In this document: one piece after another, positions 3,126-60,140 of the stretch
Layout of the letters: every line of letters begins with the position of its first letter
Position numbering within the stretch: the stretch's first letter is position 1
Source of the DNA: an uncultured Candidatus Saccharibacteria bacterium
Lineage (GTDB): Bacteria; Patescibacteriota; Minisyncoccia; Phycocordibacterales; GWA1-40-21
Assembly (NCBI GenBank): GCA_964562105.1
Contig: CAZLRP010000001.1
Span: 2,949-66,948 of the forward strand
Reading direction: 5' to 3'
DNA: 64,000 bases
Notes under the pieces: model-generated
Told to the model about the DNA's origin: nothing
Databases searched by the model: none
Seen by the model: the letters and a program-made list of their open reading frames with translations, nothing else
Translations under genes and position numbers: made by a program

Positions 3126-3512
3126 TTAGATCATCTTAACATCAATATTCACCCCTGAAGGCAAACTGATATTCGTGAGAGCTTCAATAACTTTAGCGTT
3201 TGGATTTATTATATCTATAAGTCTCCTATGTATCCTCATCTCAAATTGTTCTCGCGCATTTTTGTAGACAAAAGATGCCCTGTTGACTGTATATTTTTTA
3301 ATATCCGTAGGCAAAGGTACTGGACCTACAATTTTTGCATCATGCCTTAAAGCTGTTTCAATTATTTGCTTGACTGAGGAATCCAATATTTTGCTGTCAT
3401 AGGCCCTAACCCTTATTCTTAAAATAGAAGACGCCTCTCCTTTAACAGCTACTTTTGCCGCTTTTGTTTTTGATACTTTTTTCGTATTCCTTTTTACTGC
3501 TGTTTTTTCCAT
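3126..3512 (-). CDS. rpsJ: 30S ribosomal protein S10
   Basis: LRIRVRAYDSKILDSS...PLPTDIKKYTVNRASFVYKNAREQFEMRIHRRLIDI is canonical S10. Confidence 0.95.
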   Translation of the reverse strand: MEKTAVKRNTKKVSKTKAAKVAVKGEASSILRIRVRAYDSKILDSSVKQIIETALRHDAKIVGPVPLPTDIKKYTVNRASFVYKNAREQFEMRIHRRLIDIINPNAKVIEALTNISLPSGVNIDVKMI

Positions 3513-3547
3513 TGATTTTTAATGAACGAATGTGAGTATAAAAATCA

Positions 3548-3580
3548 TGGCCCCGTCAAATGCATTTTTATTTGACTGGG
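3548..3580. repeat. P1-related palindromic element, intergenic variant (rpsJ-tuf spacer)
   Basis: GGCCCCGTCAAATGCATTTTTATTTGACTGGGC, same arms with a variant loop. Confidence 0.7.
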
Positions 3581-3583
3581 CTG

Positions 3584-3646
3584 CCCCAGTGAAATATTTT
3601 GCATTAGCAAAATAAAATTTATTAAAATTTTATTTCACAGGGCGTA
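3584..3646. repeat. CCCAGTGAAATA...TATTTCACAGGG palindromic repeat (copy 1)
   Basis: arms CCCAGTGAAATA / TATTTCACAGGG around an AT-rich loop. Confidence 0.6.
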
Positions 3647-3676: not shown

Positions 3677-4879
3677 TTACGCAATTATTTTCGTTATAAC
3701 TCCAGAACCAACTGTCTTTCCTCCCTCTCTAATAGCAAACTTCTGTTTATTTTCCATAGCAACTGGAGCAACAAGTTTTACTTTGAAAGTAACTGTGTCT
3801 CCCGGCATAACCATTTCTACTCCTGTAGCAAGCGTAACGTCTCCCGTTACGTCAGTCGTTTTCATATAGAATTGTGGCTTGTAACCTGTAAAGAACGGCG
3901 TATGTCTTCCACCTTCCTCTTTCTTTAATACGTATACTTCAGCTTCAAATTCTGTATGCGGAGTAATGGAACCAGTTTTTGCCAACACTTGTCCTCTGTG
4001 CACATCTTCTTTCTTTGTACCACGAAGAAGAACTCCGGCATTATCTCCAGCTTGTCCTTCTTTGAGCTGTTTATTAAACATTTCTATACCGGTGATAGTT
4101 GTTTTTGATGTTGGTTTGATACCGACAATTTCAACTTCTTCTCCGATTTTTATTATTCCTCTTTCAATTCTTCCGGTAACAACTGTTCCTCTTCCTTCAA
4201 TTGAGAAAATGTCTTCAATAGGCATAAGGAATGGCTTGTCAACATCTCTTACTGGGATTGGTATATATGTATCAAGCGCGGTCATAAGGTCAGTAATACA
4301 TTTTGCACCTGCATCATCTGCTGTTTTTGCCTTTAGAGCTTCCGTAGCTGAACCCCTTATGATAGGAGCTTTTTCTCCATCAAAATTATATTTGGTCAAA
4401 AGTTCTCTAACTTCTGCTTCAACAAGATCCAAAAGTTCTGCATCCGGAACTAGGTCAACTTTGTTTAAGAATACTACTATCTTTGGAACCCCAACTTGGT
4501 TTGCCAAAAGAATGTGTTCTCTTGTTTGTGGCATAGGACCATCAACTGCTGAGACAACAAGAATAGCACCGTCCATTTGAGCGGCTCCTGTAATCATGTT
4601 CTTGATGTAGTCAGCGTGACCCGGACAGTCTACGTGAGCATAGTGTCTTGAGTCTGATGAATATTCAACGTGAGAAATAGCGATGGTAATGATTTTTGTC
4701 GCATCTCTTCTTCCAGCTGATTCTGAAGCTTTTGCGATTTGATCGTAAGCTTTTTCATTAGCCAAACCTTTGAGCGATTGCACGTGAGTAATCGCTGCAG
4801 TCAAAGTTGTCTTACCGTGGTCAATGTGACCAATTGTACCGACATTTACATGCGGTTTATCTCTTAAAAAATCTGCCAT
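3677..4879 (-). CDS. tuf: elongation factor Tu
   Basis: [28 protein letters not shown]-motifs; 400 aa. Confidence 0.97.
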
Positions 4880-8296: not shown

Positions 8297-8299
8297 GTA

Positions 8300-8345
8300 T
8301 TTAATATGCGAATATACGAATTATGCGAATGATACGAATGGCTAC
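8300..8345. repeat. heptamer array upstream of fusA
   Basis: ATGCGAATATACGAATTATGCGAATGATACGAATGGCTAC. Confidence 0.65.
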
Positions 8346-8581
8346 AAATAAATACGATGAATTTTTATCATATCTATAATAGTTTTCGTAAGATTATTAT
8401 ACTATATTCATATTTAATTAATTGTTGATAAAATAATTTAAGTAATTTTAATTTACTTTTTTCTTTTTATTTTTAGTGAGATGCGAGGCGCTGAAAAAAT
8501 TTGTGACTAAAATGTACGTTGGTACATTGCAGAAACAAATTTTTTTAGCAACGAAGCAGATTGCAAAAATTAAAAGGAAAT

Positions 8582-11489: not shown

Positions 11490-12365
11490 CTATTTTTCTT
11501 CAATGATAGCCAAACCGCCAGAAATAAAAGAAATGTCTCCTAAATCATAAGTGATTAGCACTTTGCTTTTAATATCATTTAAAAAATCCAATATTTCTTT
11601 GTGTGGATGGCCATAACTATTATTTACTCCCGCAGAAATAACGGAGTATTCTGAATTAACGGCCGATAAAAATTCGGGAGAAAGAGAATTTTTTGACCCA
11701 TGGTGTGCAATTTTCAGCACATCGCTTTTTAATTCTGCTCCATCTGTTTTTGCCAGATATTCTAAAACATCAGTCGGCGCATCCCCAGTGAACATAAAAG
11801 TTGAATCCCCATAATAAAGCTCCGCCACGATAGAATATTTGTTTGTATCAGTTCCTTTTGGATTATTATTCGGATACAAAATTTTTAAATAAGCCCCGCC
11901 GCCAAGATCAAAAATTTTTCCCGTTCTCGCAATTTCTGTTTTTATATTCTTCTCCAAAATTTGATGCTCCAGTTCTTTGAAAGTTCCCGTGCTAGAAGTC
12001 GCTCCACTGCTTATGTATTTTCGAACGGAATAATTTTTAAAAACTTCGGGAATTCCTCCAATATGGTCTTGATCCGGATGAGTCACAAGAATCGCGTCTA
12101 TAGTCTTATCGTAAAAAGGCATTACCCTGCCCAGAGCATTTAAAATATTTTTATCCGGTCCCCCATCTATAAGAAGCTGATTGCCAATTGGCGATTCTAT
12201 AAAAATAGCATCGCCTTGGCCAACATCCAAAAATGAAACTTTTAAAACATTATTCCTGGTTTCGGCTACGACAGTATAAAAAATCATTCCGTTCACAAAA
12301 AGAAGCAGAGCCAAGAAATATATTTTTATTTTATTAAATTTAAACATTTTTTTGTATTGTGTCAT
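11490..12365 (-). CDS. ComEC-related metallo-beta-lactamase-fold domain protein (C-terminal module of ComEC as a separate ORF)
   Basis: LDVGQGDAIFIE...HPDQDHIGG MBL motifs after an N-terminal TM helix; the first ATG lies inside the GIY-YIG element's inverted repeat. Confidence 0.72.
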   Translation of the reverse strand: MTQYKKMFKFNKIKIYFLALLLFVNGMIFYTVVAETRNNVLKVSFLDVGQGDAIFIESPIGNQLLIDGGPDKNILNALGRVMPFYDKTIDAILVTHPDQDHIGGIPEVFKNYSVRKYISSGATSSTGTFKELEHQILEKNIKTEIARTGKIFDLGGGAYLKILYPNNNPKGTDTNKYSIVAELYYGDSTFMFTGDAPTDVLEYLAKTDGAELKSDVLKIAHHGSKNSLSPEFLSAVNSEYSVISAGVNNSYGHPHKEILDFLNDIKSKVLITYDLGDISFISGGLAIIEEK

Positions 12366-12718
12366 TCCCGCGCAGGCGGGAATCCAGTGTTAAATTATAA
12401 TTCTGAACTCAAATCTTTCCATTCTGGATTTTCTTTTTCAATCAACCTTCTTTTCCATAGCCTATTCCATCTTTTTATGCATTTTTCTCTTAATATCGCA
12501 CTTTCTATATCTGTTGTCTGTTCATAATATACAAGAGTTTTAACATTGTATTTTTTAGTAAAACCTTCAACTAAACAATTTTTGTGCTCATATACTCTTC
12601 TCAATAAATCGTTTGTAACTCCGATATACAATGTCCCATCACGCTTACTCGCTAAAATGTAAACATAATAATATTTCATGAAAAGATTATACTGGATTCC
12701 CGCCTTCGCGGGAATGAC
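12361..12718 (-). mobile_element. GIY-YIG family-1 element: 28-bp palindromic hairpins (GTCATTCCCGCGCAGGCGGGAATCCAGT) in inverted orientation flanking a GIY-YIG gene
   Basis: left hairpin 12361-12388, right hairpin 12691-12718; located between the two comEC ORFs. Confidence 0.7.
12395..12679 (-). CDS. GIY-YIG nuclease family protein (URI domain, YhbQ-like)
   Basis: YYVYILASKRDGTLYIGVTNDLLRRVYEH = GIY-YIG motifs; 94 aa; flanked by 28-bp inverted hairpins. Confidence 0.85.
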   Translation of the reverse strand: MKYYYVYILASKRDGTLYIGVTNDLLRRVYEHKNCLVEGFTKKYNVKTLVYYEQTTDIESAILREKCIKRWNRLWKRRLIEKENPEWKDLSSEL

Positions 12719-15589: not shown

Positions 15590-15660
15590 GTCATCCCCGC
15601 GGAGGCGGGGATCCAGTATTAAATCAATTCATACTGGATTCCCGTTTTCACGGGAATGAC
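15590..15660. mobile_element. gene-less double-hairpin miniature of the GIY-YIG family-1 element
   Basis: GTCATCCCCGCGGAGGCGGGGATCCAGT + 15-nt spacer + ACTGGATTCCCGTTTTCACGGGAATGAC; same left-end spacer ATTAAAT as in the full element. Confidence 0.65.
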
Positions 15661-16279: not shown

Positions 16280-16339
16280 ACAACTATTGTATCAAATTGA
16301 TGATATAATATCATCTAATAAGATTTATTAAATTAATTT

Positions 16340-16385
16340 GAATTATTCGTAGCCATTCGTAACATTCGAATAATTTTCGTATATT
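16340..16385. repeat. heptamer array
   Basis: ATTCGTAGCCATTCGTAACATTCGAATAATTTTCGTATAT directly before an ATG. Confidence 0.65.
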
Positions 16386-16387
16386 AT

Positions 16388-16594
16388 ATGGAACAAGAAA
16401 CAATAAAAAAGCTCGCAGAGCTTGAAGAAAAAATTAACAATGTTTATGTATCGGTGGAAAAAACCAGAAAATATTTTTTTTGGACAATGATTATCACAAT
16501 AGCCGTAGTTGTTTTGCCTGTAATTGGGCTAATGTTTGCATTACCGTCATTTATGACTAATTATGTTGGCAGTTTACAAGGTTTGGGGATATAG
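16388..16594 (+). CDS. small membrane protein
   Basis: 68 aa, one TM helix; preceded by an ATTCGTA heptamer array. Confidence 0.35.
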   Translation: MEQETIKKLAELEEKINNVYVSVEKTRKYFFWTMIITIAVVVLPVIGLMFALPSFMTNYVGSLQGLGI

Positions 16595-25273: not shown

Positions 25274-25319
25274 ATGAACACCATTTATAACAGATTTTTA
25301 ATAGAAAATCTACCCGATT

Positions 25320-25377
25320 TTATATTTATTCGTAGCCATTCGTAGATTTGTATCATTCGTATATTTGTATGTTTATC
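25320..25377. repeat. heptamer array
   Basis: TATTCGTAGCCATTCGTAGATTTGTATCATTCGTATATTTGTATGTTTATC, ending at a gene stop. Confidence 0.65.
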
Positions 25378-25920
25378 TTAATATTTTGGAGACTCTTCAG
25401 TACCACTTTCCAATGCTGAATATCTCGCAAGCGCATACAAAAGACTGGATAAACGATTTAAAAAAACAAGAGTTTCTGAATCAATTTTTGCCATACCCTC
25501 TTCGTTTACTGCAACAACCCTTCTTTCTGCTCTGCGTACCAATGTACGAGCAAAATCAAAATCGGCAGACATTTCATTTGCACCGGAAATAAGAAAAGTT
25601 TTAATTGGCGGTAATTTTTTTTCTATATTATCAATAATATTTTCAAGATATTTTGTTTTTTCTTTTTGTATTTTTTTATCTGCACCAGCAACTTGGGCTT
25701 GAATGATAAAAATATTATTCTGAATTATATGAATAATATTCTGAATTTTTTCTCCATCAACCTTATAACTTTTAACTTTACACTTTATAACTCCTAAGTA
25801 TGAATTTGCTTCATCCAAGCACCCCAAAGCTTCGGTTATCGCCGAACTTTTTGAGATTTTCTGGTCGCAACATCCAAACATATTTGTTTTTCCTTTGTCT
25901 CCCTTTTTTGTGTAAAGCAT
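25378..25920 (-). CDS. cob(I)alamin adenosyltransferase (PduO-type)
   Basis: YTKKGDKGKT...ITEALGCLDEANSYLG pattern of PduO/MMAB. Confidence 0.78.
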   Translation of the reverse strand: MLYTKKGDKGKTNMFGCCDQKISKSSAITEALGCLDEANSYLGVIKCKVKSYKVDGEKIQNIIHIIQNNIFIIQAQVAGADKKIQKEKTKYLENIIDNIEKKLPPIKTFLISGANEMSADFDFARTLVRRAERRVVAVNEEGMAKIDSETLVFLNRLSSLLYALARYSALESGTEESPKY

Positions 25921-33974: not shown

Positions 33975-34035
33975 AATTGTATTTATTCGTTGCCATTCGT
34001 ATCATTTGTATAATTCGTATATTCGTATGTTTATC
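33975..34035. repeat. heptamer array
   Basis: TATTCGTTGCCATTCGTATCATTTGTATAATTCGTATATTCGTATGTTTATC. Confidence 0.65.
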
Positions 34036-34593
34036 TTATTTATCTTTCATCTTTACTACAGTAAAATCCAAATTTAAAGACCATTCCGGAACTTTTCTGC
34101 CTTTTATTATTGAATCGGAAAATTTATTTAGCGACATTTTGGTTATATTTATTTTCAAAGGATAATTTTCCAAAGATTTTAAAAATAGTTGGATATTTTG
34201 CCATGCCCCTGTGGCATTAATGTTTATTTTTAATAATTCTTCCCCCATTTTGTCTCCTTTGTCATAAGTTGCGCTTGAAACGGTGTTTATATTGTATTTG
34301 AGCCCGGTATTTGAAATCAGCTGTTCTAATGTTTTTAGGAAATCAACGGTACCTCCTTTCGCTATAATATATTCTTCCAATTTTTTCTGATACATTTCAC
34401 CCAAAATCAAATCATCTTTCATCAAAGTTTCGGCACCTTCTTTTTTTAATTCCGTTTTTATATCGTTTGATTTATTTACAGATTCAGCAATCAAATTCTT
34501 CGTAAAAGAAAACAGAAATACAAAAGCGCCCATAGACGCAATGCCCAGAAGCAGAAAAACGGCTAATAATATTTTTGTTTCTTTTTTAGGCAT
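34036..34593 (-). CDS. type IV pilus assembly protein PilO-like
   Basis: N-terminal TM plus coiled coil; position after pilN. Confidence 0.5.
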   Translation of the reverse strand: MPKKETKILLAVFLLLGIASMGAFVFLFSFTKNLIAESVNKSNDIKTELKKEGAETLMKDDLILGEMYQKKLEEYIIAKGGTVDFLKTLEQLISNTGLKYNINTVSSATYDKGDKMGEELLKININATGAWQNIQLFLKSLENYPLKINITKMSLNKFSDSIIKGRKVPEWSLNLDFTVVKMKDK

Positions 34594-40109: not shown

Positions 40110-40679
40110 GTGATGATTCATAACCATAAAAAATATCTGCTCATTGATTTTTTTGGAGTAATAGCAAAAGAAGTTGCTCCTTTTTGGTTTAATAAATATT
40201 TTTCAGAAGAGTGCGCTTTAAAATTACAAGAAGAAATATTTTCAGATAACATTGACATAAAAGTTAATTCCGAATATGAAATGTATGATATCTTGTCTAA
40301 ATTAATTAATAAAACGCCGAAAGAAATAGAACATGAGATGTTGGCGCTTGTTTTTATAGATGACAAAGTAATCTCGATCCTAAGAAGTTTAAAGAAAAAG
40401 TATATTATCGTACTATGTTCAAATGCTTGTTCTGGTTTCGTAAGAAAAATTATCAAAGATCACGATTTAAGTGATATTTTTAGCGAGATGTACATATCCA
40501 GTGAAATGGGAGTTGCCAAACCAAATGTTCAGTTTTTCCAAAAAGTACTTAATCAATCTAAAATTTTAGAAAAAGAAGCCTTCTTTATTGATGATAATCA
40601 GAAAAATATAGATGTTGCAGAATCTTTAGGAATTGAATCAATTTTGTTTAAAAACACAAGCACACTTCAAAATCTTTAG
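40110..40679 (+). CDS. HAD superfamily hydrolase
   Basis: LIDFFGV motif I region; 189 aa. Confidence 0.65.
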   Translation: MMIHNHKKYLLIDFFGVIAKEVAPFWFNKYFSEECALKLQEEIFSDNIDIKVNSEYEMYDILSKLINKTPKEIEHEMLALVFIDDKVISILRSLKKKYIIVLCSNACSGFVRKIIKDHDLSDIFSEMYISSEMGVAKPNVQFFQKVLNQSKILEKEAFFIDDNQKNIDVAESLGIESILFKNTSTLQNL

Positions 40680-42472
40680 ACTACGTCAACAATCCTCAAT
40701 CTCAACTCTTCCCTACCTCCAAAAAAACTTTTCTCCAGATTCGCAAGTAAATCTATTTTTTCTCCTTTTTCTATTTTCACGGGAAAATCTTCCATCTTAA
40801 CAAAAAAACCAATCGCAGAAATAATTTGCCCTTTCTTATTTTTAAAATTTAGTTTCAAATGTTCATTTTTCTTTCCAAAAATTTTTACATCAGAAATTTC
40901 AATATTATGAAATGCAAAAATCGGTTTTGGATTATCCATTCCAAAAGGTGCAAGCAAACTGATTTCTTTTTCTAAATTATTATTTACATTATCAATATTT
41001 AAGAGAGCGTCCGCAATCAATTCTTTGTCTTCATTTTCGGACACGCTCAATTTCTGATATGCAACCTCAAGCCCATCGGCAAGCAAATCAACTTTTTCCA
41101 AACTCACAGAAAATCCGCCGGAAGAAAAATGTCCACCATACTCGTCAAATAGATGCGCTGATTTTCTCATCATCTCTACAATATTTACACATCCGTCAGA
41201 CCTGCATGAACCTTTCAGGGTTTTTCCTTCTTCTCTTCCCCAGAGAAAAACGGGGCCATTGTGCTCATCCATAAGCGAGTTTGCAACAAGCCCAAGAAGC
41301 GAAGGTTTCCAATCAGGGTTTCCCGCGACAAGAACTTTTCTTTTTTTGTTGGGATCAAATTCATACCAATGTTTTCTGATTTCTTTTACCATTGAAGCTA
41401 CGATCCCTTTTCTCTCATCATTTATTTTATTTAGATGAAGCGCATATTTGATGGCCTCGTTCTCATCTTTTGTCGTGAGTAAATTAAAAGCGTCTTCCGG
41501 AATTCCCATCCTTGAAGCCGCATTTATGCGAGGAGAAATCATAAAACCAATATCATCCTCGGTAATATTTTTTTGATCTGTTTTTATAATAGAAAGCAAT
41601 CTTTGGAGCCCTGATCTTGGAGATTTTCTCAAAACTTTCAAGCCATAGTAAGCAAAAAGTCTGTTTTCTCCGATAAGCGGAACCATATCGGAAATAGTGC
41701 CGATTGCCACCATATCTAGGAGCCACTTTTCCCAACCTGCCGTAAGACAGGTTGCTCCGAGAAATGTCGAGGAGTTTTCTCGTATTTTTTTTATCAAAGC
41801 CTGCACAAGCTTGAAAGCCACACCTGCTCCACAAAGATTTTTATCTGGATATTTACAATTTTTTTGTTTTGGATTGAGTATTGCGAGTGCATGAGGCAAT
41901 TCTTCCCTTGCCCCGTCAAATTGGCTTTTTATTTGACTGGGGTTTTCATCCAGCGAAATTCTTGGCAAGTGGTGGTCCGTGATTATCAAATCTATTTTGT
42001 GTTTTTTTATTTTTTCCGCTTCTTCAACATCGGCAATTCCGCAATCTACAGTAATAATCAAATCCACTTTATTTTTTGCAAATTCGTCCACTGCTTCATC
42101 ATTCAAACCGAAACCTTCAAGAACTCTGTGTGGAATATAATTTTTAAAGTTGTCATAACCGATTTTTTTGAAAAAGTCGTGCAAAATTACAGCACCGGGA
42201 ATTCCATCTGCATCATAATCGCTGTATATAACAATCTTTTCTTTCTTTTCAACAGCCGCCAAGATTCTTTCTACGGCTTTTTCCATTCCGAGCATTAAAA
42301 ACGGGTTATTATTTTCTTCAAAAATAGGGTTTAAAAGGGTTTCGGCTTCTTTTTCTGTTTTGATTCCTCTGTAATACAAGAGTTTGCGTAAAATTTCCGG
42401 AAATTTTCCCAATTCCTCATTAATTTTTTCTGGAATCTCATCTTTTACTAAATATTTTTGCATAAATAACAT
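40676..42472 (-). CDS. recJ: single-stranded-DNA-specific exonuclease RecJ (carries an in-frame palindromic-element insertion)
   Basis: DHH motifs (LIITVDCG, LIITDHH); 598 aa; contains the PSQIKSQFDG insertion. Confidence 0.9.
   Translation of the reverse strand: MLFMQKYLVKDEIPEKINEELGKFPEILRKLLYYRGIKTEKEAETLLNPIFEENNNPFLMLGMEKAVERILAAVEKKEKIVIYSDYDADGIPGAVILHDFFKKIGYDNFKNYIPHRVLEGFGLNDEAVDEFAKNKVDLIITVDCGIADVEEAEKIKKHKIDLIITDHHLPRISLDENPSQIKSQFDGAREELPHALAILNPKQKNCKYPDKNLCGAGVAFKLVQALIKKIRENSSTFLGATCLTAGWEKWLLDMVAIGTISDMVPLIGENRLFAYYGLKVLRKSPRSGLQRLLSIIKTDQKNITEDDIGFMISPRINAASRMGIPEDAFNLLTTKDENEAIKYALHLNKINDERKGIVASMVKEIRKHWYEFDPNKKRKVLVAGNPDWKPSLLGLVANSLMDEHNGPVFLWGREEGKTLKGSCRSDGCVNIVEMMRKSAHLFDEYGGHFSSGGFSVSLEKVDLLADGLEVAYQKLSVSENEDKELIADALLNIDNVNNNLEKEISLLAPFGMDNPKPIFAFHNIEISDVKIFGKKNEHLKLNFKNKKGQIISAIGFFVKMEDFPVKIEKGEKIDLLANLEKSFFGGREELRLRIVDVV
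41911..41942. repeat. P1 palindromic element (CCCCGTCAAATTGGCTTTTTATTTGACTGGGG) inserted in frame in recJ
   Basis: imperfect inverted repeat CCCCGTCAAAT/ATTTGACTGGGG around loop TGGCTTTTT; encodes PSQIKSQFDG on the gene strand. Confidence 0.85.
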
Positions 42473-43298: not shown

Positions 43299-43339
43299 AC
43301 GGTAAGATTATACCATTTTAAAAATATTTGGTATAATTG

Positions 43340-43450
43340 AGATACGAATATACAAATAATACTAATGATACGAATGGCAACGAATAAGAAATTAATTTGA
43401 TTCATTTGTAGCCATTTGTAACATTCGCATAATTCGTTAATTCGTATATC
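43340..43450. repeat. heptamer array (long)
   Basis: GATACGAATATACAAATAATACTAATGATACGAATGGCAACGAATAAG...TTGTAGCCATTTGTAACATTCGCATAATTCGTTAATTCGTATATC before an ATG. Confidence 0.7.
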
Positions 43451-43452
43451 AT

Positions 43453-43914
43453 ATGGAAAACAAAATCTCTTGGGTGGCGTTTGAATATAAAAGAAAAGAA
43501 AAAACCGCAGACTGGTATTGGGCAGTAATTCTTATATCTTTGGTCATAGTGGTAGCATCCATCATCATGCACAATGTTCTTTTTGCAATATTGATAATTA
43601 TCTCCACTGTAATTCTTATGTCATTTTCCGTAGTCGCCCCAAAAACAGTTGAGATAAGTGTAAATCAAAAGGGTGTTACCGTAGGAAAAGAAATGTATCC
43701 CTTTGCAACTCTTGAACATTTTTGGATAGAAAGTACAGACGAAGAAAACCAAAAGATTTTATTAAAATCCAAGAAATTAATTATGCCACTTATAGTTATC
43801 CCCCTTGAAGAACACCATCATCTGGATGTAAGAGAATTTTTACTGCAATATCTTAAAGAAGTAGAAATGCATGAGCCTTTGTCACAGAAAATAATGGAGC
43901 GATTAGGTTTTTAG
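43453..43914 (+). CDS. hypothetical membrane protein
   Basis: two TM helices, 153 aa. Confidence 0.45.
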   Translation: MENKISWVAFEYKRKEKTADWYWAVILISLVIVVASIIMHNVLFAILIIISTVILMSFSVVAPKTVEISVNQKGVTVGKEMYPFATLEHFWIESTDEENQKILLKSKKLIMPLIVIPLEEHHHLDVREFLLQYLKEVEMHEPLSQKIMERLGF

Positions 43915-44544: not shown

Positions 44545-44608
44545 CCAGACCCCAGTGAAATAAAATCTTTAAGGATTTTATCCGCTAGACGCGGATATTT
44601 CACAGGGT
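44545..44608. repeat. CCCAGTGAAATA...TATTTCACAGGG palindromic repeat (copy 2)
   Basis: same arms, different internal sequence; upstream of ruvA. Confidence 0.6.
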
Positions 44609-51195: not shown

Positions 51196-51346
51196 GTCGT
51201 TCCCGCGCAGGCGGGAATCTAGGTTGAGTTCAATTAATTCTGGATTCCCTTCTTACAGAAGCTGTACACCTTTCACATTTTGATTACAAAACGTTCAAGG
51301 TCTTGCGGAAGCAAAAACTTTTGCTTCCTCACCTCCGCGGGAATGA
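51196..51346. mobile_element. family-1 double-hairpin element with ~95-bp internal insert
   Basis: GTCGTTCCCGCGCAGGCGGGAATCTAGG ... CCGCGGGAATGACAG; internal hairpin GGAAGCAAAAACTTTTGCTTCC is related to hairpins at 25132 and 26768. Confidence 0.55.
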
Positions 51347-52974: not shown

Positions 52975-53775
52975 TTATTTAAACAATATCAAAGCACTCG
53001 CGACAATAGATGCTGTTTCAGCGCGAAGTATTTGCGGACCAAAAGAAACGCTTTTTATTCCCTTCTGCTTAAACAACCCTCTTTCCTTTTCTGTCCAACC
53101 ACCTTCGGGCCCGATAAGTATTCCTATTTTTCTTGCCCCGTCAAATTGGCTTTTTATTTGACTGGGGTTATCTGAATTACCACACTTCGCTCGCAAAGAC
53201 GAACTAAAATTTTCTCCATCAAAATCAAGAACAAATAATTCTCCATCGAAACCTAAAATAGCTTTTTCTAACAATTCTGGATTAAAAATCTTCGGTAATG
53301 CGGTTTTTCCTGATTGTTCTGCTGATTCTTTTGCAATTTTGTTCAATCTTTCTAGATTTAAATTTTTTTTCTCGCTTCTTTCAGAAATTATTGGATGAAA
53401 AGCAGAAACCCCAATTTCTGTGCATTTTTCCACGACAAATTCAAAATTATCTTTTTTTATAATTGATTGGAAAATGTGCAACTCCACAGACGCGGAACTA
53501 CGCGGATTTGACGCAGACTGATGCGGATTTTTAATTTCTTTATCGACAATTAAAATCGCTTCTTGTTTTGAAAGGATTTTAAAATATGCTTCGTATTCGG
53601 AATTTCCACCATTAAAAATTATTATGCGGCTTACCCCGTCAAATTGGCTTTTTATTTGACTGGGGTCGCTAGCTTTCAGTCTGAAAACTTTTATCCACTG
53701 ATGTAAAAGCTCCTTATCGTCAACGTGAACTTCTTTTTTTATTTCTTTGTTTATATAAAATCTGTGCAGTCTCAT
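52975..53775 (-). CDS. rsmE: 16S rRNA (uracil1498-N3)-methyltransferase RsmE with three in-frame repeat insertions
   Basis: MRLHRFYI start and GILIGPEGGWTEKE C-terminal motif; carries two PSQIKSQFDG insertions and one P2 (SASNPRSSASV) insertion. Confidence 0.8.
   Translation of the reverse strand: MRLHRFYINKEIKKEVHVDDKELLHQWIKVFRLKASDPSQIKSQFDGVSRIIIFNGGNSEYEAYFKILSKQEAILIVDKEIKNPHQSASNPRSSASVELHIFQSIIKKDNFEFVVEKCTEIGVSAFHPIISERSEKKNLNLERLNKIAKESAEQSGKTALPKIFNPELLEKAILGFDGELFVLDFDGENFSSSLRAKCGNSDNPSQIKSQFDGARKIGILIGPEGGWTEKERGLFKQKGIKSVSFGPQILRAETASIVASALILFK
53146..53167. repeat. P1 palindromic element copy in rsmE (first)
   Basis: identical 30-nt core, in frame (SQIKSQFDG). Confidence 0.85.
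53491..53530. repeat. P2 repeat (CGCGGAACTACGCGG...GACGCAGACTGATGCGGA) inserted in frame in rsmE
   Basis: encodes SASNPRSSASV within rsmE. Confidence 0.7.
53634..53665. repeat. P1 palindromic element copy in rsmE (second)
   Basis: identical core, in frame (NPSQIKSQFDG). Confidence 0.85.
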
Positions 53776-53832: not shown

Positions 53833-53903
53833 GTCATTCCCGCGGAGGCGGGAATCCAGTATTAATTCAATTCAACACTAGATTCCCGCCTCCGCGGGAA
53901 TGA
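53833..53903. mobile_element. gene-less double-hairpin miniature of the GIY-YIG family-1 element
   Basis: GTCATTCCCGCGGAGGCGGGAATCCAGT + 18-nt spacer + TAGATTCCCGCCTCCGCGGGAATGAC, between rsmE and clpP. Confidence 0.65.
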
Positions 53904-53974
53904 CACGATAAGATGGTTGCTTTCAATTAATTTTTGATATATCCTTGAATTGTCTTTAATAATTTAATTGGTTA

Positions 53975-59359: not shown

Positions 59360-59430
59360 CCCAGGTTAAATTGTATTTATTCGTAGCCATTCGTATCATT
59401 CGCATAATTCGTTGATTCGTATGTTTATCT
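59360..59430. repeat. heptamer array
   Basis: TATTCGTAGCCATTCGTATCATTCGCATAATTCGTTGATTCGTATGTTTATC. Confidence 0.65.
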
Positions 59431-60140
59431 TAAAATTTAACTATCTTCGCTTTATTTTTATACTTTTTTATTAAAACCTGATCTCCATTATCAAGAATTA
59501 TTTCTTCATCGTTGTTATCCGCATAAACGATTGCTTTACCTCGAGTTATTTTTACGACGATTTCGGAATCTTCTTTTAAAACCATGTGGTCCGATTGTTC
59601 TATACTATTATTGAAAGCTACTCCGATGCCAACTTCAAAAAAACTATCGGTAATAGATCTATAATATCCGGTTGAGCCATAAGGTGTAGAAACAGCAACA
59701 CCATCACCTATTATTTCCTCGCCCACCTTTTTATCGTTTATAAAAATTTCATATCGTATAGCACACCTTGGATCAATATTGTGAACGATAATTTCGTTTA
59801 GCCCAACAATTTTTCTTGTCCCGTCAAATTGGCTTTTTATTTGACTGGGATTACCGCAAGAAGTAGCTTCAATTTTAATTTCATCTTCAACCCTGTATTC
59901 CTTCTTTGTAATTTTTTTTAAAATTTCTTCTGGTGATAAATCATGTCCTTTTTTTGAAGTTTTACTTTTCTTCAAAATAAACTTCGGAATTTCAGGATAA
60001 TCTTTTTCTGATTTCATAAGTGTTCCGTCCCCACCGACGACTGCCACCATGTCTGGAGTCTCAGTAACTATTTTAAAACCGGTCTTTTCTACAAGTTTTA
60101 TTATTTCTTCAGTTTTGTGACCGTAGATTAGGAGGTTCAT
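59430..60140 (-). CDS. ppnK: NAD kinase (with in-frame palindromic-element insertion)
   Basis: VVGGDGTLM motif, GSTGY motif; contains PSQIKSQFDG insertion; start uncertain (an alternative ATG lies 42 nt upstream). Confidence 0.8.
   Translation of the reverse strand: MNLLIYGHKTEEIIKLVEKTGFKIVTETPDMVAVVGGDGTLMKSEKDYPEIPKFILKKSKTSKKGHDLSPEEILKKITKKEYRVEDEIKIEATSCGNPSQIKSQFDGTRKIVGLNEIIVHNIDPRCAIRYEIFINDKKVGEEIIGDGVAVSTPYGSTGYYRSITDSFFEVGIGVAFNNSIEQSDHMVLKEDSEIVVKITRGKAIVYADNNDEEIILDNGDQVLIKKYKNKAKIVKF
59820..59849. repeat. P1 palindromic element copy in the NAD kinase gene
   Basis: identical core, in frame (NPSQIKSQFDG). Confidence 0.85.

Follow-up and report, generated by a model that had tools for sequence, protein, structure and literature searches.

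A hairpin-forming 36-nt repeat in genes and spacers of tiny Patescibacteria genomes, compared with Rickettsia palindromic elements

The repeat and its copies

The window analysed here is a 64,000-nt stretch of contig CAZLRP010000001.1 from an uncultured Candidatus Saccharibacteria bacterium (Patescibacteria). The subject is a short palindromic repeat that lies inside three of its housekeeping genes, recJ, rsmE (twice) and the NAD kinase gene (nadK), and once more in the spacer between the genes for EF-Tu (3677-4879) and S10 (3126-3512). An earlier note on this DNA had reported four identical 30-nt copies in these genes and had likened them to Rickettsia palindromic elements (RPEs). An exact search bears out the four copies: CCCGTCAAATTGGCTTTTTATTTGACTGGG occurs four times on the plus strand of the window (Table 1), and a match was found in 0 of 100 dinucleotide-preserving shuffles. 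The start given for the second copy, 53146, was about 10 nt off, as the palindrome begins at 53136.

The inserted unit is 36 nt long and consists of a 32-nt imperfect palindrome, CCCCAGTCAAAT-N9-ATTTGACGGGG on the gene-sense strand, followed by a 4-nt tail, YRRG, which is usually CAAG. The stem has 11 bp (4+7) with one bulged base, and the loop has 9 nt (8-10 in variants). The hairpin proposed in the earlier note is predicted on either strand; its energy is -13 to -15 kcal/mol for RNA and about -9 for DNA, at z-scores of about -4 to -4.8. Over 125 distinct copies, CCCAGTC is preceded on its 5' side by A (87%) and C (94%), and GACGGG is followed on its 3' side by G (96%), C/T, A, A and G. The four coding copies all lie within open reading frames (ORFs) of the minus strand, and the ORF translations agree with the claim that they share one frame, reading (N/D)PSQIKSQFDG(A/V/T). 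The fifth copy, announced as a loop variant in the rpsJ-tuf spacer, was found there with an 8-nt loop; its last G is changed to C, and its predicted fold has -14.9 kcal/mol. No further copies were found in the window at up to 5 arm mismatches, hence no decayed ones, and an Rfam 15 scan of the window at the gathering threshold returned 10 tRNAs only, leaving the repeat unmatched. The arrangement is a hairpin-forming 36-nt repeat dispersed in tiny Paceibacteria-type (candidate phyla radiation) genomes.

Table 1. Copies of the repeat, the cassette beside the spacer copy, and the host genes. Positions are those of the window.
Feature	Position	Strand	Exact 30-mer (plus strand)	Palindrome with outer C/G pair	Notes
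36-nt unit in recJ	41907..41942	-	41912-41941	41911-41942	gene sense CCCCAGTCAAATAAAAAGCCAATTTGACGGGG+CAAG; encodes (N)PSQIKSQFDGA(R)
36-nt unit in rsmE, site A, after KASD	53630..53665	-	53635-53664	53634-53665	encodes PSQIKSQFDGVS
36-nt unit in rsmE, site B, just before the KIGILIGPEGGW strand	53132..53167	-	53137-53166	53136-53167	encodes (N)PSQIKSQFDGA(R)
36-nt unit in the NAD kinase gene	59815..59850	-	59820-59849	59819-59850	encodes (N)PSQIKSQFDGT(R); outermost stem pair T...A, replacing C...G
non-coding variant hairpin, tuf-rpsJ spacer	3551..3581	-			8-nt loop; 39 nt upstream of the rpsJ start codon
conserved cassette after the hairpin	3510..3550	-			CCATGATTTT-TATACT-CACATTCGTTCATTAAAAATCA-ATG: -10-like box, short AT-rich leader, rpsJ start
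recJ host gene	40676..42472	-			Pfam DHH, DHHA1, RecJ_OB; PDB RecJ matches, E down to 4e-67
rsmE host gene	52975..53775	-			Pfam Methyltrans_RNA; start taken as the MRLHRF methionine
NAD kinase host gene	59430..60140	-			Pfam NAD_kinase_C; PDB NAD kinase matches

At least 21 species-level genomes of Patescibacteria carry the element. When one genome per species was scanned, 60 loci with 64 copies were found in 20 metagenome-assembled genomes (MAGs), labelled by their depositors as Paceibacterota, Taylorbacteria, 'Patescibacteria group' or Saccharibacteria, and the window represents the 21st genome. In a metagenome scan 92 stretches matched, and 83 copies were counted in the 80 loci retrieved. 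Viral contigs gave a single match, a 29-nt variant, so phages are no obvious vector. The range of host proteins was estimated from the DNA loci; a 48-residue join of three peptide variants, compared with a database of 5.8 billion proteins, shared words with one candidate and produced no hit. Loop variants are weakly genome-specific, with 27 of 2000 label shuffles equalling or exceeding the observed clustering, and the window's own variant, AAAAAGCCA, is common to four genomes (the window and three others). The earlier note had read the perfect identity of the copies as recent spread; identity alone is no proof of this, given that the arms are invariant across species and that this loop is found in four genomes.

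Some genomes hold copies in particular arrangements. Copies close to one another were seen at L039:5505-5681, L041:3952-5688 and L030:846-1187. They form clusters in MAG bin-8470, where one ORF of 273 residues holds two copies 150 nt apart and a further three are spread over two adjacent ORFs, while a different MAG contains two copies in inverted orientation, 280 nt apart. In MAG AMAZON01 (L007, L019, L051) the element is the core of a non-coding palindrome of about 70 nt, GAATGRCTCAAC ... GTTGAGYCATTC, a lineage-specific extended form.

Insertion sites, reading frame and constraint

Orthologues of the host proteins show the repeat as a block that is either present or absent. In RecJ, 119 of 120 orthologues (60-84% identical) have 4 residues where the window protein has 16, and the 12 extra residues of NAD kinase are missing in all 60 representatives examined. 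At RsmE site A a clean 12-residue gap is seen in 17 of 19 aligned orthologues, and most RsmE orthologues are without an insert. The clean insertion foreseen in the earlier note holds for RecJ, RsmE and NadK, with its size corrected from 10 residues and 30 nt to 12 residues and 36 nt. When CCCCAGTCAAATAAAAAGCCAATTTGACGGGGCAAG is removed from recJ in silico, the join reads GAA AA|G GAA GAA, and the 83%-identical orthologue P0124 reads GAA AAA GAA GAA. For site B, the DNA of the filled gene P0010 was compared with that of the empty genes P0069 and P0066 (93% identical), and the junction, GATAA|TAAAATT, has no duplicated bases. Codon-level reconstruction at 7 other copies, for which the DNA was read, was likewise clean. 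Target-site duplications, which the earlier note had suggested looking for, are absent from the filled and empty junctions compared, and the inferred target sites are A-rich (AA|AAAA-like).

Several sites are filled in more than one genome. The NadK site is also filled in metagenome loci L122 and L137, RsmE site A is filled in P0005 with the same arm codons, and RsmE site B is filled as well in P0004, P0009, P0010 and P0012. In a neighbour-joining tree of 110 RsmE orthologues, genes filled at one and the same site are on scattered branches, and the orthologues closest to them (89-93% identity) have no insert. The sites used in different lineages are four in RsmE, two in RecJ and one in NadK. 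In other orthologues the site-B loop of RsmE holds peptides such as SLRAKRGNPG, VIPAQAGIQ and SFLRRQESI, which we read, at the peptide level, as translations of other palindromic repeats resembling the CGTC-1 class of repetitive extragenic palindromes (REPs). RecJ P0123 carries a different insert, GTNPPSRVRFGEAM, in exactly the loop that is filled in the window, which suggests an insertion hotspot or an especially permissive loop. The overall pattern fits recurrent gain in insertion-tolerant loops, perhaps with precise loss, and allele exchange by recombination is a possible account of the shared filled sites.

The inserts were also mapped on structural models, as the earlier note had proposed, and they coincide with low-confidence loops. 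The AlphaFold model of RecJ has a mean predicted local distance difference test score (pLDDT) of 88.5, and its sole segment below 50 is residues 172-182, the insert, in a loop C-terminal to the DHH motif that is variable in solved RecJ structures too. The model of RsmE (mean pLDDT 84) matches solved RsmE structures with template modelling (TM) scores of 0.75-0.82; its low-confidence stretches are residues 31-50 (site A, pLDDT 62-66), residues 191-210 (site B, 53-65) and residues 81-100, the last being a separate repeat-derived segment. In NAD kinase the insert is 12 residues at a beta-hairpin turn. Judged by low pLDDT in these AlphaFold2 models, the inserts are predicted to be surface loops away from the protein core, as is characteristic of RPEs, and the RsmE fold is predicted to stay intact despite them.

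Two other segments of RsmE were noted. The separate repeat-derived segment is encoded at 53482-53529 (residues ~84-98) by a tandem 21-nt repeat, AATCCGCATCAGTCTGCGTCA / AATCCGCGTAGTTCCGCGTCT, giving NPHQSAS-NPRSSAS; of the other RsmE orthologues only some (P0002, P0006, P0035, P0003) have a segment like it, and this is the lowest-confidence part of the model. Directly 5' of site B in gene sense, at 53168-53200, rsmE encodes SSLRAKCGNSD, which looks like a decayed CGTC-type REP. The GTTAYCTGGATTGC... flank of site B recurs beside non-coding copies in L015, L017, L026 and L032, so the element and the CGTC-type REP are often adjacent.

The position of each copy relative to genes was recorded for 152 distinct copies. 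The open sense-strand frame, (N/D/H)PSQIKSQFDGA, is used by 52 coding copies, 7 are coding in open frames of the other strand, 1 would interrupt an ORF if read, and 92 lie between genes or at the edges of contigs. Of the three sense phases only the one that gives PSQIKSQFDG is free of stops, and each of the other two has TAA or TGA. On the opposite strand two frames are open, and both encode hydrophobic peptides, PVKLAFYLTG and RQIGFLFDW. When orthologous sites are collapsed, the count becomes 37 sites against 8, where the null expectation among open frames is 1:2. Intergenic copies between co-directional genes have a much weaker orientation bias (21:10), which argues that the coding bias is mostly selection on the peptide and not strand-specific insertion. 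It is best explained by tolerance of the hydrophilic peptide and intolerance of the hydrophobic ones, and in the few coding copies on the antisense strand the loop is changed towards hydrophilic residues, as in PVKLDSHLTG.

The earlier note had held that only in-frame, tolerated insertions survive. It is right that 52 of the 60 intragenic copies are in one frame, but a unit of 36 nt, a multiple of three, leaves the frame of the host gene unshifted wherever it inserts, and it is therefore orientation and codon phase on which selection acts. Copies in all frames with stops, which the earlier note thought would speak against a mobile element, were not seen. The near absence of ORF-breaking copies (1 of 60 intragenic) argues that the element is translated. 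The same figure bears on the proposal that the host proteins stay unaltered, the 36 nt being cut out of the mRNA or bypassed during translation. A stable hairpin is predicted in the mRNA sense, and bypassed coding-sequence hairpins exist elsewhere; yet with bypass, stop-phase copies should be tolerated, and the antisense coding loops would have no need of their change to hydrophilic codons. We consider bypass very improbable.

Conservation of the arms was assessed in 7 copies chosen by the peptide pattern PSQ....FDG, of which five came from four RsmE orthologues found by host-gene homology and two were the window's own. All 7 use identical codons, CCC AGT CAA AT. ... TTT GAC GGG G, and the neighbouring codons vary freely. 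CCC, GGG and AGT are unlikely codons for a genome of 34% GC. Loop positions are variable among copies, and compensatory stem changes were seen in a small, partly ascertained sample: T-A for C-G at the outer pair (n=5, including nadK) and C-G for T-A at the loop-closing pair (n=3). That filled orthologues carry the same rare codons indicates that it is the hairpin, as DNA or RNA, that is constrained and not the peptide, and we infer that the arms are kept invariant because the spreading mechanism or a host protein recognises the hairpin.

These codons also decide against reading PSQIKSQFDG as an ancestral or convergently selected functional peptide motif. The occurrence of one peptide in many proteins, always in frame, is what such a motif would give, and the earlier note had expected it to appear as a conserved peptide with divergent DNA in orthologues. 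No such case was seen: the RsmE carriers use identical codons, and the rare ones are the same in every copy. The peptide is missing from nearly all orthologues, the same DNA is also found between genes and on the other strand, and the inserts are low-confidence loops in the models. Absence from orthologues and the fixed rare codons effectively refute this reading, to which we give next to no credence.

Non-coding copies and the upstream cassette

The spacer copy belongs to a separate non-coding subfamily within a conserved cassette. Of 26 intergenic copies with a same-sense gene after them, half (13) are 37-42 nt upstream of the start codon, and the order hairpin-TGATGATTTT-TATAGT-like box-CGCTTCGCTCATTAAAAATCAATC-ATG is common to ten loci from several genomes and the window, each time before a different gene. 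By our own reading of the N-termini, the genes behind the cassette look like housekeeping genes, for instance serS, priA, rplJ, ftsE, nusA and yebC; the rpsJ gene behind the window's cassette was confirmed by Pfam. The -10-like box varies as real -10 boxes do. A regular-expression search of the window for more leader cassettes found the rpsJ copy only. The hairpin of the cassette could be a boundary hairpin beside a promoter, a protein-binding site or a portable leader.

A related structure was noted as well. This is a Y-shaped palindrome of about 57 nt, found at 3585-3642 and 44551-44607 of the window and also at L001:5017 and L026:1449, which consists of CCC(N)GTGAAAT, two small internal hairpins and ATTTCAC(N)GGG. 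Apart from a compensatory C/G swap, it has the same outer stem as the main element. One of the two window copies adjoins the spacer hairpin, and the other precedes TGATGATTTT and the ruvA start. Fold z-scores range from -3.7 to -5.5, and Rfam has no match for it.

The cassette leads to the alternative that the hairpin is primarily a cis-regulatory sequence of the host, either a protein-binding palindrome or a terminator or insulator in a promoter-leader cassette, and that the intragenic copies are by-products or internal regulatory sites. The near-constant distance to the start codon in half of the same-sense upstream copies agrees with this, as do the cassette shared by different genes, the arms that are invariant across species, and the Y-shaped relative before ruvA with its C/G swap and the same motif after it. 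The details of the cassette agree less well. Only 13 nt separate the TTGACG of the 3' arm from the -10-like box, and a promoter and terminator scan of the spacer called no sigma-70-type or canonical site on the gene strand. The T-run is 6 nt from the stem, so there is no canonical terminator. The coding copies have the tail CAAG, from which the tail of the cassette copies differs. A cis-regulatory origin also fails to explain 36-nt blocks in the loops of RecJ, RsmE and NadK that close orthologues are missing. We regard it as rather unlikely, while giving it real weight.

Relation to known repeats and interpretation

Classical RPE-1 is about 100-150 nt long, and RPE-1 to RPE-10 were reportedly described by Ogata and colleagues in 2000 and 2002. 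The element was compared with RPEs by description. Like RPEs, it is a dispersed, hairpin-forming palindrome of coding and non-coding DNA that adds a peptide in frame to housekeeping proteins, at surface loops, keeps the ORF and is missing from orthologues; like them, it has no known transposase and resides in the reduced genome of a host-dependent bacterium. It differs in belonging to an unrelated phylum, in having a 36-nt unit far shorter than RPE-1, in arms that are invariant over many species, and in a subfamily tied to a cassette upstream of genes. Its intragenic share (60 of 152) is also larger than in R. felis, where 85 of 728 RPEs are within ORFs (PMC1166351).

The tagged REPs are closer in size. 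CGTC- and GTAG-tagged REPs, including intragenic ones in R. conorii (RPE-4, RPE-6), Opitutus terrae and Thauera, were described by Di Nocera et al. 2013 (PMC3733652); intragenic REPs are often found in DNA repair and RNA-modifying genes, and CGTC REPs are without a dedicated transposase (PMC3733652). The element shares with tagged REPs the form of a 20-40-nt palindrome that is mostly intergenic, with a minority in ORFs. However, it has no unpaired CGTC (TGTC/CCTC) tag, and the CGTC on its plus strand has the GTC paired with GAC in the stem. CGTC REPs have an 8-9 bp stem that starts with A-T pairs, a loop of 4-5 nt and a CCA tail, whereas the element has a bulged 4+7 bp stem, a 9-nt loop and a YRRG tail. 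Unlike the GTAG REPs, which are linked to REP-associated tyrosine transposases (RAYTs), it has no GTAG at either end.

With the ends of the insertion sequences IS200/IS605 and with REP-RAYT systems, which transpose as single strands through hairpin-guided Y1 HUH enzymes, the element shares an imperfect hairpin with an extrahelical base, clean empty sites that would agree with precise excision, and no target-site duplication; unlike in those systems, no conserved cleavage tetranucleotide is established, and the strand bias outside genes is weak. MITEs (miniature inverted-repeat transposable elements), such as the Correia elements of Neisseria, are also small and non-autonomous and can carry or create promoter and terminator signals, but the element is far shorter and has neither the terminal inverted repeats of a parent insertion sequence nor a target-site duplication. 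The comparison of filled and empty sites rules out a MITE with target-site duplication. DNA uptake sequences and uptake signal sequences occur about once per kb and arise by substitution, in contrast to the element, with its 5 copies in 64 kb, about one per 13 kb, and its block insertions; low density and block insertion together rule out an uptake sequence. 'RPE-like', as the earlier note had it, is right as an analogy, and the element belongs to no defined RPE or tagged-REP family (for RPEs, by description). It is a new family, in a new phylum, of a kind of element already known from Rickettsia and some proteobacteria. A literature search for repeats of the REP, RPE and MITE type in Patescibacteria, made in one library and so no proof of absence, found no link, in line with the view that nothing of the kind had been described for this lineage.

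Altogether this suggests that the element is probably a family of short, non-autonomous, hairpin-forming dispersed repeats in Paceibacteria-type Patescibacteria, functionally equivalent to REPs and RPEs. Copies would be gained as 36-nt blocks at A-rich sites, without target-site duplication, and apparently lost cleanly too. Selection leaves almost only copies that encode (N/D/H)PSQIKSQFDGA, in permissive surface loops. The build of the unit, its clean presence or absence as 36 nt, the filter on frame and orientation, the constraint at the level of nucleotides, the position in loops and the broad distribution are observed, whereas mobility is inferred. It would be provided in trans by an enzyme, and the bulged hairpin together with the lack of duplication points to a hairpin-recognising, single-strand mechanism of the IS200/IS605-RAYT type.

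Several observations weigh against this interpretation. No mobilising enzyme was found around the copies: a phmmer search of ORFs of at least 60 residues with a Y1 transposase, IS608 TnpA (identical to PDB 2a6m), found no homologue in 0.5 and then 0.96 Mb around the copies (best E = 0.47), which is a weak test with a single query and partial genomes. The DNA pattern that collected the loci fixed the arms, so that arm conservation among those loci is ascertainment. Where the arms are invariant across species, this and the conserved upstream cassette suggest a host function, for which a purely selfish model has no need. P0010 against P0069 and P0066 is the only filled and empty pair compared as DNA at more than 90% identity, and the 35 nt just 5' of the P0010 insert at site B (L063:2105-2140) are unusually diverged from the empty L065 and L066, while the rest of the gene is nearly identical to the empty alleles at the DNA level. 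The diverged tract may be a fast-evolving loop or a recombination tract that arrived with the element. Finally, distant lineages have the same sites filled (N, A and B in RsmE, and the NadK site); a preference for certain targets, survival restricted to permissive loops, or exchange of alleles by recombination in place of transposition could account for this.

The last two observations are also those on which an explanation without transposition would build. Filled alleles would spread by DNA uptake and homologous recombination or gene conversion, and the hairpin might serve as a signal for uptake or recombination. Natural competence is commonly assumed for Patescibacteria; lineages that are not sisters share filled sites, and four genomes have the loop variant AAAAAGCCA in common, as expected if alleles were exchanged. 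Recombination moves existing alleles, however, and cannot create copies at 37 or more unrelated sites. The density of the copies is far below that of known uptake sequences, which accumulate by substitution and not by block insertion. We hold this explanation to be improbable.

Dispersed repeats of the REP and RPE kind thus remain our preferred reading, and a bolder version of it can be framed around the hairpin itself. A protein conserved across Paceibacteria, either a DNA enzyme or a binding protein specific for hairpins, may recognise it, and the hairpin would then have two roles: within a portable promoter and leader cassette it would organise the expression of housekeeping operons, and as a 36-nt module, actively inserted and precisely excised, it would remodel surface loops of essential proteins. 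This is speculative and, on balance, unlikely. If it is true, then together with the CGTC REPs and the Y-shaped GTGAAAT relatives it would make palindrome-driven loop evolution general in these ultra-small genomes.

The extreme streamlining of Patescibacteria is compatible with several selfish palindrome families in essential genes, and palindrome insertion has repeatedly made protein loops vary in length. RsmE carries two copies of the element, the adjoining segment read as REP-derived, and the repeat-derived segment. Such inserts can explain 'lineage-specific insertions' in protein alignments and structure predictions of the candidate phyla radiation; they can mislead orthology and annotation pipelines, and they offer presence/absence markers for strain tracking. 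The conservation of the arms is a handle for finding the hairpin-recognising protein, the missing partner for RPEs and CGTC REPs, which could become a genetic tool for organisms that are hard to manipulate. The element would gain in interest if a dedicated partner protein of the invariant hairpin, or a function of it in gene expression, came to light.

The window contains other repeats. Seven copies of TGTC-ATTCCCGC-GSAG-GCGGGAAT-CCAG are at 12361-12387, 12692-12718, 15590-15616, 15634-15660, 51196-51222, 53833-53859 and 53878-53904. They are mostly head-to-head pairs in intergenic spacers, with the pair at 53833-53904 just upstream of rsmE, and they fit the published definition of CGTC-1 REPs, the family of Neisseria dRS3 and Rickettsia RPE-6 (PMC3733652). 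CGTC-1 REPs often abut the 36-nt element. Intergenic repeats of 60-70 nt, rich in the heptamer ATTCGTA (TACGAAT), lie beside gene ends at 1549-1677, 8298-8366, 16335-16398, 25317-25380, 33975-34038, 43334-43457 and 59369-59432, the last of which lies against the stop codon of nadK; they are possible promoters or leaders of the genes downstream. The window also has ten tRNA genes (25202-63851). On the plus strand, 15 of 16 4-kb windows have a negative GC skew, and nearly all long ORFs are on the minus strand, which is consistent with a single replichore whose genes are co-oriented with replication.

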